Source: Pseudomonadota bacterium (GTDB lineage: Bacteria > Pseudomonadota > Gammaproteobacteria > Steroidobacterales > Steroidobacteraceae). Taken from it: a stretch of 64,000 nucleotides of DNA. The stretch lies in NCBI GenBank assembly GCA_037200665.1, contig JBBCGD010000002.1, forward strand, positions 252,161-316,160, given 5' to 3'. Positions 41,314-47,010 of this stretch are shown in pieces. The stretch's first letter is position 1, and each line of letters opens with the position of its first letter. The translations under genes were made by a program, and so were the position numbers. The notes below the pieces were generated by a model that was given only the letters and a program-made list of their open reading frames with translations, had not been told where the DNA came from and did not search any database.

Positions 41314-41570
41314 GTGCCTCGAAACCGGACCGGTCCGTCCCGTTTACGCCGAAAGTCTAGTGCGGCTGCGTGTCGGCGCAACTGTCAAATCAATCGGGAT
41401 GGTCGCATTTGATACCTGGGGGGTGCGTGATTGGAGTCGCAGATAGGGCCTTGGAGCCCTGTCAGGCCCATTTCTGGCTCCAGAGTCTGGATCCGTGAGC
41501 TGACGCCTATCAAGGGCACTACTGTACGCCATAATTTTCCCGTATCGAACGAAGCAGGCTGTCGCAAAAA

Positions 41571-42824
41571 ATGAAAGCGGATTCTCGAGGAATATCGGCC
41601 GACAGGTTAGTGCTCGACTGGCTTATCCCGGCATCTTTTGCGCTGCTGGTTTCGGCCACAATTCGCTTCCACTCACTGGCGCCCGGGCCGAGCATGCCGC
41701 GCATGGTCGGCGACCTGCTGGCCATTGCTGCAATCATGCTGGTTCTCCTGATGGCACTGGGCCGGCATCTCGCCGTGCCGCGCGACATTACCCGGCTACT
41801 GATAGCGCTGGGAGCAGCGGCGGCGGTATCCGTTCTTGGCTCCGGGGGAACCGATATTTCCCTGCTACGGCTGGAGCTCTATCTCGCAATTGCCTTGCTG
41901 GCGATCGTCTTTTACCTTGCACATCGCGACACAGGCCAGATACCACTAGCAAGTTATTTCCTGGGTATCGGGCTCGTACATCTGCCTTTTCTCATGACGG
42001 CGGTGTTGTGGATCAAGGGACTTACGCCACCATTTTGGCAGTATGGTTTGCGCGTCGCCGATTTCGCACATGTGCGACAGTTCGGAGAGTTTGGATTTTT
42101 CGCTGCAGTCAGCAGCACAGCTCTGACGGCGCTGTCCCGGCGCGCGGGTCTGCCTGCTTTCCTGCTCGCATTCGCAGCGGTGTTCGGCATCGTGTTGACG
42201 GGTTGCCGTGGCGCGTTGTTGTCGTGGATCCTCTTTGTGGTGTTGTTGTGTTTCTTCAGCCCGGCACGTCTGCGGATCGCGGTGCACGGGTTTGCCGTAC
42301 TGGCGTTGAGCGCTGGCCTGGTCTGGTACCTCGATCACTCAGGGTTGTTGCCGTCGCCAAATATCTTCAATCGGGTAGCCCAGCTTGCCCAGGGCGAAGG
42401 TCCCGGTTTTGATAGCGGGCGAATCCCCTTGTGGATGTCTTCACTCAAGCAAATCGCCGCCCATCCGCTGTTCGGCAGTGGCCCGGAAGGCTACTGGCTG
42501 TCGGGCTGTTGTGACCGCACGATCATGCAGGCGCATGACTTCATCCTGCAGTTCCTGATGGAATTTGGCGCAGTCGGTTGCAGCATCCTGGCGCTGATCG
42601 TCATTCGGACCATCAAGCATCTCGGCGGCGGCGCTGCGCTTCTGAAGCGTGCGGGTGCGACACCGGGCAATCGCATCCTCTCGTGCCTGATGGTGGCCTA
42701 TCTGGCTTACAGCCTGATTGACCAGACGATGTACCACCTGGTGCCGCTACTGCATATGGCGCTTTTCAGCGGATTGCTTGCCGCAGGCTTGGCGCAGGCG
42801 CGTATCACTGTAGCTTCGACTTGA
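41571..42824 (+). CDS. Wzy_C-type polytopic membrane protein (O-antigen ligase / PglL-TfpO-like O-oligosaccharyltransferase family)
   Basis: 417 aa with about 10-12 hydrophobic segments. The characteristic loop reads GCRGALLSW ... SGRIPLWMSSLKQIAAHPLFGSGPEGYW ... QAHDFILQFLMEFGAVG (family pattern R..W...i...P.fG.G.g.....HN..Lq...E.G..G). Lower GC than its flanks. Lies between pilB and pilA. Confidence 0.75.
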   Translation: MKADSRGISADRLVLDWLIPASFALLVSATIRFHSLAPGPSMPRMVGDLLAIAAIMLVLLMALGRHLAVPRDITRLLIALGAAAAVSVLGSGGTDISLLRLELYLAIALLAIVFYLAHRDTGQIPLASYFLGIGLVHLPFLMTAVLWIKGLTPPFWQYGLRVADFAHVRQFGEFGFFAAVSSTALTALSRRAGLPAFLLAFAAVFGIVLTGCRGALLSWILFVVLLCFFSPARLRIAVHGFAVLALSAGLVWYLDHSGLLPSPNIFNRVAQLAQGEGPGFDSGRIPLWMSSLKQIAAHPLFGSGPEGYWLSGCCDRTIMQAHDFILQFLMEFGAVGCSILALIVIRTIKHLGGGAALLKRAGATPGNRILSCLMVAYLAYSLIDQTMYHLVPLLHMALFSGLLAAGLAQARITVAST

Positions 42825-44847
42825 CCTCGGTTGTCAGGTTGCCGAACTGGATGTCGAATCTCTTTTCAAGCGCATCCCGAAGGCGCGCTTCTTCCTTGGG
42901 ATCGACCCGACCGGCTGCTGGTTCATAGACGAAGCGGTAGGGATTGCCGCCAGTATCTTTCGGCACCGCGGCTGCGAAGGAGTCGCCCAGGAGTGCGGCG
43001 TACTGTCGTGTGGACAGGATGGTCTTGACCAACTCCGCGCGCACCTGCAGTCGGTCGGTGCGGGGATCCACGCGATAGACCGTTGCGGCGGCCGCCAGTG
43101 CGCTCGCCGTCATATTTGAAGTGTCGAAACCACCGGGGTTGTATTCGCTTTCGGTGAACCGGATGCGATCCGCGAAGCGCTCGGCTGCGGCGGGCTCGTC
43201 ACGGAAAAGCGGCAGCAGTGACATGCCATCCAGAGGTTGGGTGGCAGGCATTTTCAGCAGATCCAGAATCGTCGGCACGATATCCAGCAGCGACACCTTG
43301 CCATCCACGGCACGTGGTGCCGGCAGCAATCCGGCTGCGGCGCCGTAGGCACGAAAGCCGAGCACGGTGTGGTACTGGCGCGGCGAGAACACGCTGGTAC
43401 CGTGTCCCTTCTCCTGCGCACTGATGACGGATTCCTCCTCGCCTGGCAGTGCCTCGGTCAGGAATTCGTCCTCTGCTCCGAAGGCCTCGCCATGGTCCGA
43501 CAGCGCCACGACGATCGCGTTGGCAAGCAGGCCCTTGCGTTCCAGCAGAGCGAGAAGGTCGCCGAACTGCTTGTCGGCGCGATGTGAGGCATTTATGTAT
43601 TTCCAGCGGGTTCCTGCTTCGTAGGTGGGCGCCTGGTCCTCCCGCGGCAACGCCGAGTCCGCCCACTCGAAAGGCCAGTGAGGCAATGTCAGATGCAATG
43701 CCAGGAATAGCGGCTGTCGCGTATCCAGGCCTCGTTCGACCCGCTTCACGAAGGAATCCGGATCATAGGTAACGAAGGCGGCGCGGTTGGCGTACTGGTA
43801 CGGGAACAGCAACGCGCCCAGCCACGTATTCATCACTACATTCGAGAGCGGCGTGTCGGAAAACCAGGCCAGCACGAAATCGCTGCCGCCTATGGGCGGG
43901 GTCAGGGCGCGGTCGAAGCCGTAGCTGGCATCTACGTTGGAGAAGCGCGTCTCGTCGATGGCGTACACCGCGCGATAGCCTTTCTCCCGCAGCTGTGATG
44001 GCAGCGTGCTTCCCTCGCGGATCAGATCTCGTGGCAACAGGTTCATGAAGGCGCCAGTGGTGTGAGGATGGCGGCCAGTCAATATTGAAACCCAGGATGG
44101 GAACGTGCGCGCCAGCGGTGTAACGGCATCGGTAAGCTGGAGCGACTGATCAAGAAAGGCTCGCATGTACGGTGTGTTTTCAGTCGTCGCCATGTCCGGG
44201 CGCAGCGAGTCGATGCCGAGCACGATGACATTGGGACGGCTCGGCACGGGGTTCGCGTGCGGTACAGTGGCGTGCAGCAGGAAGCCCGTGGTCGCGACCA
44301 TCACCGCTGCGCCAACACCCAGCGCCACCATCCGCCGTGGGCCGAGCGTGCGGAACAGCGCAAGCAGTATCGTCACGGCTGCGCCCGTCACGACGCAGGT
44401 ACTCAAAAAGAGGCTGGGTGTAACGCCGAACAGGGCGACGTGTCCGATGGCCTTGTAGGGTGCCCCCAGCGAGGACCGCGGGAAATAGCTCGCGTTCATG
44501 ATCAGCAGGCAGAGGGCGCCAAGCACGAACCAGACCAGTATCCATTGGCGGCGCGTGGCCTTTGCCTTCGGCCAGGCGCGCTCGCTCGCAAGCGCGAGCA
44601 GCAAGCACGATGCTCCGAAGGCGAAGTGCAGCGCCAGCTGCGCCAATACGAACATGAGGATATTGAACCCGAGCTGCGTATGCCACAGCGGCTCGGTCAG
44701 CGTTTCAGCAACTACCTTGGGGTTGTGGAAGGCGTCGGTCTTGAGCAGAGCTGCAAGACGCAGGTAAGAGAGCAGAAGTAGTGCGAGGCCGAGCAGGGCT
44801 GCGAAGCCCAACCCTGCAACTGCGCTGCTGCGCGCGGCGGTCTTCAT
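42805..44847 (-). CDS. Membrane-anchored alkaline-phosphatase-superfamily enzyme (sulfatase-fold; EptA/LtaS-like phosphotransferase candidate), paralog 1
   Basis: 680 aa. The N-terminal region of about 200 aa holds several TM helices. It is followed by GIDSLRPD, TPLARTFPSWVSILTGRHPHTTG, VVALSDHGEAFG and GHGTSVF, then an extension of about 150 aa. Its start overlaps the stop of paralog 2 (ATGA). Confidence 0.7.
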   Translation of the reverse strand: MKTAARSSAVAGLGFAALLGLALLLLSYLRLAALLKTDAFHNPKVVAETLTEPLWHTQLGFNILMFVLAQLALHFAFGASCLLLALASERAWPKAKATRRQWILVWFVLGALCLLIMNASYFPRSSLGAPYKAIGHVALFGVTPSLFLSTCVVTGAAVTILLALFRTLGPRRMVALGVGAAVMVATTGFLLHATVPHANPVPSRPNVIVLGIDSLRPDMATTENTPYMRAFLDQSLQLTDAVTPLARTFPSWVSILTGRHPHTTGAFMNLLPRDLIREGSTLPSQLREKGYRAVYAIDETRFSNVDASYGFDRALTPPIGGSDFVLAWFSDTPLSNVVMNTWLGALLFPYQYANRAAFVTYDPDSFVKRVERGLDTRQPLFLALHLTLPHWPFEWADSALPREDQAPTYEAGTRWKYINASHRADKQFGDLLALLERKGLLANAIVVALSDHGEAFGAEDEFLTEALPGEEESVISAQEKGHGTSVFSPRQYHTVLGFRAYGAAAGLLPAPRAVDGKVSLLDIVPTILDLLKMPATQPLDGMSLLPLFRDEPAAAERFADRIRFTESEYNPGGFDTSNMTASALAAAATVYRVDPRTDRLQVRAELVKTILSTRQYAALLGDSFAAAVPKDTGGNPYRFVYEPAAGRVDPKEEARLRDALEKRFDIQFGNLTTEVKSKLQ

Positions 44848-46823: not shown

Positions 46824-46948
46824 CAGAGCGAGACCAAGGCCGGTCGTCGCGCGGGATGGGTTCTGGAAAGGTGGTGTCTTGATACCGCAGGCGTTCTTGT
46901 CGGAAGGCTGGGGAGATCGGATTTGCGGCCGACGTCACGGCCCTTGCC

Positions 46949-46974
46949 AAAAAAAAGCCCCTCCGAAGAGGGGC
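46949..46974 (-). terminator. Rho-independent terminator of pilA
   Basis: On the minus strand, GCCCCTC-ttcg-GAGGGGC is followed by TTTTTTTT (plus-strand A8 at 46949..46956). It lies about 40 nt after the pilA stop. Confidence 0.8.
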
Positions 46975-47010
46975 TTCTGGAGGTCGAGAGACCTCAAGTC
47001 CAGCTGCAGC

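Follow-up and report, generated by a model that had tools for sequence, protein, structure and literature searches.

The genes for the major type IVa pilin (pilA) and the pilus extension ATPase (pilB) are separated by 5.7 kb in a 64,000-nt stretch of the genome of an uncultured Steroidobacteraceae bacterium from soil (GenBank assembly GCA_037200665.1, contig JBBCGD010000002.1, positions 252,161 to 316,160; the whole stretch is called the window here), and we were interested in what the three membrane proteins encoded in this interval might do. One of them belongs to the Wzy_C family, and the two others, called S1 and S2, are paralogs with a sulfatase-type domain of the alkaline phosphatase superfamily. 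A first-pass annotation, made from the sequence, had proposed a combined module for glycan and phospho-form decoration of the pilin. As set out below, the interval is most likely a pilin-accessory (modification) cassette in a pilS-pilR-pilA-pilB-pilC-pilD locus, and the S and Wzy_C proteins are very probably accessory enzymes dedicated to the pilus or the pilin.

Linkage of the S family to pilus genes

One genome per species (185,579 species) was scanned with a profile of the S family, and 79 loci were kept. Neighbouring pil genes were located by tblastn with the Pil proteins of the window, and the S proteins were placed in a neighbour-joining tree. The first-pass annotation had proposed asking whether orthologs are always linked to pilA, and the answer was strongly positive: the clade of the window proteins comprised 61 loci, and all 61 lay beside pilA, pilB or pilR. 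A further member of this clade (L019) is found on a 2.1-kb contig, too short to judge linkage. In the 54 pilus-linked loci in which pilA was identified, the S gene occurred in three arrangements, namely downstream of pilA on the same strand (27/54), divergent from pilA (15/54) or upstream of pilA, between pilR and pilA (12/54), with median pilA-S gaps of 258-450 bp. As the linkage was kept through rearrangement, a functional tie is indicated rather than frozen synteny.

Over their full length, S1 and S2 share 53% identity. In the tree, S1 grouped with L001_11665 and L003 and S2 with L001_9827, L002 and L018; the gene was therefore duplicated before these lineages separated, with loss of one copy in some of them afterwards. 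Second S copies of independent origin, some of them inverted, are present at other loci. The nearest relatives of the S2 and Wzy_C proteins of the window are from Steroidobacteraceae, and one cultured carrier was found, Povalibacter uvarum DSM 26723 (L027), in which a pair of S paralogs lies next to pilA. With the S profile, 910 clusters (50% identity) were obtained at E 1e-30 or below, a number that may include neighbouring sulfatase-superfamily proteins. Seven long open reading frames (ORFs) on the same strand, which formed a separate top branch of the tree, were left out of account as artefacts of alternative frames in high-GC DNA.

A sister clade of 17 loci with 32-37% identity (L052, L059-L062, L065, L067-L069, L071-L078) came from Coxiellaceae-type and other gammaproteobacterial metagenome-assembled genomes (MAGs). 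No pilin motif was present within 10 kb of the S gene in these 17 loci. In most of them the S gene is flanked on either side by a fadE-type acyl-CoA dehydrogenase gene, and genes for thiolase, FadB, a NagZ-type glycoside hydrolase of family 3, a phosphoribosyltransferase and DUF1189 are further neighbours, a lipid-metabolism neighbourhood that may or may not be meaningful.

Metagenome contigs anchored on PilB (41-87% identical to the window PilB) and chosen independently of S showed neither S nor Wzy_C in any of the 33 loci that extended 3 kb or more upstream of pilB, and in several of them pilR, pilA and pilB are directly adjacent. The S-carrying genome loci have comparable PilB identities (59-92%), so that the pilA-pilB interval does vary between relatives, the second point that the first-pass annotation had wanted checked. 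Many S-carrying loci consist of just pilR-pilA-S-pilB, separated by a few hundred bp, and their islands lack glycosylation genes; others hold glycosyltransferase genes of families GT2 and GT4 and methyltransferase genes in the same interval. The pilA-pilB region is a modification hot spot, and S is its constant element.

Several further observations concern this variable gene content. Extra candidate pilin-modification genes were seen in the pilR-pilA/S intervals of five loci (L012, L017, L027, L056, L063), and in three of the five (L012, L017, L056) a 583-aa protein with eight transmembrane (TM) segments and no Pfam match is encoded beside the GT2 gene, the two resembling a pair of polyprenyl-phosphate-sugar synthase and GT-C-like protein. 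A second, much more divergent membrane protein with a Sulfatase domain (about 700-800 aa, seven hydrophobic segments, PF00884 E 2e-5, just under the gathering score) is encoded in the pilus islands of L020 (14175-16571), L021, L024, L051 and L079; enzymes of the alkaline phosphatase superfamily may have entered this hot spot on more than one occasion. A HigB-toxin/helix-turn-helix antitoxin pair with small ORFs lies between Wzy_C and pilB in one lineage (L080, 6074-6807; L081, 3698-4431), so the interval accepts mobile cargo. Many related loci have two tandem pilin genes upstream of pilB (L025, at 2645 and 3294; L088, L092-L094, L097, L099 and others); the window has one pilA only.

Fold and conserved residues of the S proteins

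Both S proteins matched Pfam Sulfatase PF00884 (S1, E 2.6e-27, residues 205-532; S2, E 1e-28). Weaker matches to Phosphodiest and DUF229 were obtained for both, and S2 also matched SGSH_C and SopA_C weakly (E up to 0.01). In S1, five hydrophobic helices (8-26, 59-77, 102-120, 137-155, 173-191) precede the catalytic domain at about 205-560, which is followed by a conserved C-terminal region of about 110 aa. As we read the sequence, loops rich in K/R alternate between the two sides, which would put the N-terminus in the cytoplasm and the catalytic domain in the periplasm; a conserved loop 'FP.SSLGEPY' and the motif L109-G110-P112 would then lie on the periplasmic face. In an alignment of 27 diverse S members, reaching down to 41% identity to S2, D195, T230, D428 and H429 were invariant (27/27), as were H56, W88 and N100 of the membrane domain and the L109-G110-P112 motif, and all family-invariant residues are kept in both S1 and S2. 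The invariant membrane-domain residues together with L109-G110-P112 fit a functional lipid-binding module.

For the catalytic domain, the nearest relatives are sulfatases and phosphonate monoester hydrolases (PMHs). A profile search of the PDB led to S1 sulfatases (the enzyme family of that name, as distinct from protein S1), choline sulfatase and PMHs with E 1e-21 to 1e-13; nearly all of the top 60 matches were sulfatases or PMHs, the remainder being a few NPP-type phosphodiesterases and one uncharacterised protein. An AlphaFold2 model of S2 (pLDDT 81.5) gave a consistent picture, as the top 50 Foldseek matches in the PDB were all PMHs or S1 sulfatases (E ~1e-18, target-normalised TM-score 0.5-0.6). 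EptA, MCR-1, LptA and LtaS were not among the PDB matches reported for S (top 60 of the profile search, top 50 of Foldseek). The EptA_N domain (PF08019) was absent from S1 and S2 in the Pfam scan (E up to 0.01), and no NCBIfam model for EptA, LtaS or OpgB matched either protein (E up to 0.01). T230 aligns with the formylglycine Cys of the sulfatases, 'TFPSW' of the S family standing against 'CAPSR'. The formylglycine motif C/S-x-P-x-R is thereby replaced by T-F-P-S-W, with Trp in place of the Arg recognized by the formylglycine-generating enzyme, and by our reading of the alignment the second Asp of the sulfatase 'DD' pair is Ser in the S family. Lacking the formylglycine motif, the S proteins cannot be formylglycine sulfatases. 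From sequence and model, they are predicted membrane-anchored enzymes with a fold of the arylsulfatase/PMH type, which share with the EptA/PptA type a Sulfatase-superfamily domain, the putative Thr nucleophile position and the D/D/H metal ligands. The earlier description as 'EptA/LtaS-like' thus holds for the architecture and the Thr nucleophile; as a family assignment it fails, there being no EptA_N domain and no EptA, LtaS or OpgB model match, with sulfatases and PMHs as the nearest relatives.

A separate observation concerns the 5' end of S2. No ATG, GTG or TTG occurs upstream of the GTG at 46823 (46824-46950 examined), and the in-frame residues '...TTGLGLAL' before this GTG extend the first TM helix found in S2 orthologs. 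The ortholog in L001 starts MSKAASSQRPLSATAGLGLAALLG, and the NCBI annotation gives a product of 628 aa. A non-canonical start, a truncated first TM helix and an indel error are the possibilities.

The pilin, the Wzy_C protein and the layout of the locus

PilA of the window matched Pfam Pilin and N_methyl, and its best solved relatives were the PilE proteins of N. meningitidis and N. gonorrhoeae (E 1e-34 to 1e-31). Ser68 of mature PilA aligned with Ser68 of PilE (HMMER alignment, in which the PilA stretch pairs with WPENNTSAGVASSPTDIKGKYV), and the glycosylation position Ser63 of PilE is Ala in the window PilA. PptA is described to modify Ser68 and Ser156 of gonococcal PilE and Ser157 and Ser160 of the meningococcal C-terminal 'CRDASDAS' (PMC10434233), and PptB adds phosphoglycerol to Ser69 (PMC10948894). 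A Ser in the Ser68-equivalent column was present in 23 of the 51 S-linked pilins and in 1/33 S-less pilins; a Ser/Thr tail of at least four residues after the last Cys (e.g. CRSGFGGS) was found in 20/51 and 0/33 respectively. A naive Fisher test, which ignores phylogeny, gave p ~1e-5 for each feature. The pilin alignment included a gonococcal reference, and the match of the window Ser68 was confirmed by the HMMER alignment. No single conserved acceptor Ser could be defined among the 51 S-linked pilins, and by eye no pilin feature specific to the Wzy_C-carrying loci was seen in the alignment.

The Wzy_C protein matched Pfam Wzy_C (E 6e-13) and no further Pfam domain, has at least nine hydrophobic segments and gave an all-helical AlphaFold2 model (pLDDT 84.5). 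Its subfamily is small: a search of 5.8 billion protein clusters gave 77 homologs, none of them below 43% identity, and many of these share contigs with S homologs. Wherever enough flank was available, the order was pilB / Wzy_C (+) convergent with S (-) / pilA / pilR / pilS without exception (the L082 locus ends just past Wzy_C), and the subfamily was never seen without an S gene. TfpM, the pilin O-oligosaccharyltransferase (O-OTase) of Moraxellaceae, was matched in NCBIfam by 24 of 26 members, weakly (E 1e-8 to 1e-10), the window protein reaching 35 bits against an equivalog cut-off of 600; a weak match to RfaL was obtained for 1/26. R213, R284 and H322 are among the invariant residues, and H322 lies inside residues 198-351, the stretch matching positions 172-311 of the TfpM model. 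A Wzy_C domain with an essential His is common to the four O-OTase classes described so far; in TfpM this residue is His286 (PMC9829042). Source annotations label the protein 'O-antigen ligase', and no lipopolysaccharide (LPS) or capsule genes were found beside the Wzy_C loci. A PDB sequence search with the Wzy_C profile gave no match at E up to 1, and Foldseek with the model returned marginal matches to FtsW/RodA only (E 0.05) and none to WaaL, which does not separate ligase from O-OTase.

The order pilB / Wzy_C / two paralogs / pilA given by the first-pass annotation was borne out by the ORF map and Pfam (Table 1), and the two overlaps it described are real: the S2 stop and the S1 start overlap as ATGA, and the convergent Wzy_C and S1 genes overlap by 20 nt. 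It had also called the interval an insert of different composition. The 5.7-kb pilB-pilA interval has a GC content of 0.611, compared to a mean of 0.656 for the window (sd 0.018, 5.7-kb windows), the lowest among 292 sliding 5.7-kb windows, and GC at third codon positions (GC3) is 0.68 for Wzy_C, 0.75 for S1 and 0.76 for S2 compared to 0.87 for pilB and 0.85 for pilR. The shift is real but modest, and the 60-nt spot values given earlier (0.48, 0.52 and 0.63), though correct, exaggerate it. A recent, strain-specific insertion does not agree with the same arrangement being present in relatives whose Wzy_C proteins are only 45-67% identical, and a recent horizontal insert was rejected as the principal explanation for the same reason; the lower GC3 still allows an older exchange or weak codon selection. 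A strong intrinsic terminator directly after pilA had been missed in the first-pass annotation. Such a terminator after the pilin gene is a described hallmark of pilin-accessory cassettes (PMC11841053). A sigma-70 promoter scan of 41200-47800 gave no match, including the pilB/Wzy_C intergenic region, where divergent promoters are presumed.

Table 1. Features of the pilus locus and the pilB-pilA interval (window positions)
Feature	Position	Strand	Remarks
pilB (T4P extension ATPase)	39568-41313	-	581-aa ORF; core gene bounding the cassette
pilB/Wzy_C intergenic region	41314-41570	.	257 bp, flanked by two divergent genes
Wzy_C-family polytopic membrane protein, 417 aa	41571-42824	+	candidate pilin O-oligosaccharyltransferase
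S1, 680 aa	42805-44847	-	predicted 5-TM anchor, periplasmic alkaline-phosphatase-superfamily domain and C-terminal region
S2, 659 aa from GTG	44844-46823	-	paralog of S1; 5' end uncertain
Intrinsic terminator GCCCCTC-TTCG-GAGGGGC, then T8	46949-46974	-	directly after pilA
pilA, major type IVa pilin	47011-47529	-	172-aa prepilin, 164-aa mature; presumed substrate
pilR (sigma-54 response regulator of pilA)	47756-49114	-	452-aa ORF; bounds the locus

For the core genes, pilB is 90% identical to a gene of L083 carrying Pfam MshEN and T2SSE, and pilR orthologs in related loci have Response_reg, Sigma54_activat and HTH_8 domains. Compared to the L083 orthologs, apparent frameshifts were seen in pilC (near 38502) and pilD (near 38150; window 37446-39555), and pilS (49121-50778) is broken into at least four frame segments; pilB, pilA, pilR, Wzy_C, S1 and S2 are intact in the window. 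Assembly indel errors are more likely than pseudogenes, because the identity of the flanks is high (72-95%, pilC/pilD) and similar splits occur in other long-read MAGs (e.g. L003).

Proposed mechanism, alternatives and known systems

The mechanism that we propose would start with S1 and S2 as inner-membrane enzymes, whose five predicted TM helices put the catalytic domain in the periplasm. There, the head group of a phospholipid (phosphoethanolamine, phosphoglycerol or phosphocholine) would be taken onto the Thr, forming a phospho-Thr intermediate, and passed on to Ser/Thr of PilA before the pilin is released from the inner membrane; a lipid as donor is favoured by the conserved membrane module. 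Candidate acceptors are mature Ser68 in the window PilA and the Ser-bearing tail after the last Cys in relatives, and S1 and S2 would have different sites or different head groups. The Wzy_C protein would transfer a glycan linked to undecaprenyl diphosphate to an internal residue of PilA, and expression of S2-S1 would probably be set by read-through of the pilA terminator. We infer that S transfers and does not hydrolyse, which donor and which pilin residues are involved, and that Wzy_C hands over a glycan. For S the analogy is with PptA/PptB, EptA and LtaS; the D...T...D-H set of metal ligands and nucleophile is that of phosphoryl-transfer members of the superfamily. We give the full mechanism, with phospho-form transfer to PilA by S and glycan transfer by Wzy_C, about an even chance.

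A bolder reading is possible, and we put it forward tentatively. S may represent an unrecognized lineage of protein-targeting phospho-form transferases independent of EptA/PptA, in which an arylsulfatase/PMH scaffold with the formylglycine Cys changed to Thr was fused to a 5-TM lipid-access module. This lineage would be dedicated to type IV pilins in Steroidobacteraceae, Nevskiaceae and allied soil and freshwater Gammaproteobacteria, with pairs of the S1/S2 type writing different head groups or sites. The Wzy_C subfamily, which strictly co-occurs with S, might then add a fifth type to the known pilin O-OTases, with either an internal site or the phospho-form as its target.

Several points weigh against these proposals. 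The catalytic domain of S is nearest to hydrolases and not to any known transferase, the S proteins are without an EptA, LtaS or OpgB signature, and the sister clade is not pilus-linked. The start codon of S2 appears doubtful, and the frameshifts in pilC, pilD and pilS would, if real, mean a defunct pilus. The pilin comparison spans two differently sampled sets, ignores phylogeny and depends on an uncertain loop alignment; moreover, 22/51 S-linked pilins have neither the Ser68 equivalent nor the Ser/Thr tail. For Wzy_C, the known enzymes TfpO and TfpM are encoded immediately downstream of the pilin gene and glycosylate its C-terminal Ser/Thr (PMC9829042), whereas the gene found here is on the strand opposite to pilA and 4.2 kb away from it, with S2 and S1 in between. 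The last residues of the window PilA are ...PAECRG, with no C-terminal Ser/Thr. The same distal placement was found in L001-L004, L016, L080, L083 and L084, and CRQ, CRA or CRPQA are the pilin ends at other Wzy_C loci. With a distal gene and a pilin ending in CRG, the protein would have to act on an internal site, should it be a pilin O-OTase. The first-pass assignment as a pilin O-OTase-like enzyme is consistent with TfpM being the nearest curated family, although the match is weak, and disagrees with the gene position and pilin end of TfpO/TfpM. Similarly, the combined glycan plus phospho-form system proposed there is in line with Wzy_C and S both being located at pilA, but most S loci have no Wzy_C gene, so that it would be a feature of a subclade.

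It is rather unlikely that S adds phosphoethanolamine or phosphoglycerol to a pilin- or lipid-linked oligosaccharide, as EptC does with the Campylobacter N-glycan or OpgB with osmoregulated periplasmic glucans (OPGs), the glycan being supplied by the Wzy_C enzyme or other glycosyltransferases of the island. The strict occurrence of this Wzy_C subfamily together with S speaks for it, and the GT2, GT4 and methyltransferase genes and the 8-TM protein in the interval of other S loci point in the same direction; the many islands made up of pilR-pilA-S-pilB, with no glycosylation gene, do not fit, and the co-variation observed is with Ser features of the pilin. We also regard as unlikely that the S proteins are hydrolases on the periplasmic face (phosphodiesterase, phosphatase or atypical sulfatase) instead of transferases, their role being to strip or alter a modification on the pilin or to rid the surface of a polymer hindering the pilus. 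Here T-F-P-S-W in place of the formylglycine motif C-x-P-x-R has to be set against the nearest sequences and folds, all of which are hydrolases (S1 sulfatases, choline sulfatase, PMHs). A soluble hydrolase would, in addition, have no need of a conserved 5-TM module with invariant residues, which is typical of lipid-donor transferases, and loci with S only have no partner 'writer' enzyme.

A cassette for the general envelope (LPS, O-antigen ligation, OPG or capsule) that happens to lie in a recombination-prone pilA region, with Wzy_C as a ligase of the WaaL type, appears improbable. The 'O-antigen ligase' annotation, the sister clade away from pilus genes and the GC3 of the interval, which is below that of its flanks, may be explained in this way, but not the pilus linkage of all 61 clade members in three arrangements and several families, nor a Wzy_C subfamily found only at the pilB-S site. 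Besides, the match to RfaL (1/26, weak) compares with 24/26 Wzy_C members for TfpM, and no LPS or capsule genes flank the locus. Finally, pilin accessory proteins without modifying activity exist (PMC11841053), and S could be a non-catalytic, TfpY-like factor for pilin assembly or a chaperone on a dead enzyme scaffold; as the nucleophile and the metal ligands are invariant down to 41% identity to S2 and present in both paralogs, we consider this highly improbable.

Pilin-adjacent accessory cassettes and pilin phospho-form transferases are both already known kinds of system. In the literature, no pilA-linked sulfatase-like or phosphotransferase accessory gene was found, an absence that is no proof of novelty, and likewise no description of a pilA-linked enzyme of arylsulfatase lineage or of this Wzy_C subfamily. 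Decoration of the pilin controls pilus bundling, adhesion, phage susceptibility and immune recognition. Pilin phospho-forms are so far a speciality of Neisseria, made by PptA and PptB, both EptA-type (PMC10948894, PMC10434233). If the proposed pilin modification by S is true, phospho-form or related pilin chemistry would be widespread beyond pathogens, a function would be obtained for a large family of 'sulfatase-like hydrolase/transferase' proteins, and a natural example would be at hand of an arylsulfatase fold retooled with a Thr nucleophile. The hypothesis lends itself to direct testing, since one carrier, Povalibacter uvarum DSM 26723, is in culture.

Among known systems, PptA and PptB of Neisseria resemble the S proteins in the membrane anchor, the periplasmic domain of the alkaline phosphatase superfamily and the Thr-type nucleophile, which for S are predicted. 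The presumed substrate is also alike, being PilE-like with Ser at the PptA site Ser68 and, in relatives, Ser-rich tails. To our knowledge, pptA has not been described as linked to pilE. The two paralogs S1 and S2 recall the pptA/pptB pair, which gives different head groups (PMC10948894). PptA belongs to the EptA/LptA family (PMC10434233), whereas S1 and S2 have no EptA_N domain or Ept-type NCBIfam match, and their catalytic domain appears to be of the arylsulfatase/PMH type with an extra conserved C-terminal region. With the S1 sulfatases and PMHs, the best sequence and fold matches, they have the metal-binding D and D-H positions in common, and the S2 model suggests a sulfatase fold with N- and C-terminal subdomains as in S1 sulfatases; unlike these enzymes, the S proteins are predicted to be anchored by five N-terminal TM helices and are encoded at a pilus locus. 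LtaS and OpgB resemble protein S1 in the architecture of five TM helices and an alkaline-phosphatase-superfamily domain, but no match to their NCBIfam models was obtained (E up to 0.01), and LtaS is not among the top fold matches.

The Wzy_C protein has the Wzy_C domain and the polytopic topology of WaaL and PglL, and with 417 aa it is similar in length to WaaL; PglL enzymes are considerably larger. It differs from WaaL in that its gene lies outside an LPS core cluster and RfaL was matched only weakly, by the one member mentioned. The closest parallel to the locus as a whole is found in the pilin cassettes of P. aeruginosa and Acinetobacter (tfpO, tfpW-X, tfpY, tfpZ; TfpM in Moraxellaceae), where accessory genes are likewise adjacent to pilA. 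A terminator after pilA, variable presence, a co-varying pilin type and a Wzy_C enzyme in the cassette are common to the Pseudomonas-type cassettes and the interval described here. The arrangement departs from that of tfpO and TfpM, as Wzy_C is remote from pilA, runs on the opposite strand and converges with S. The constant member here is an enzyme of the alkaline phosphatase superfamily, for which no description in such cassettes was found.

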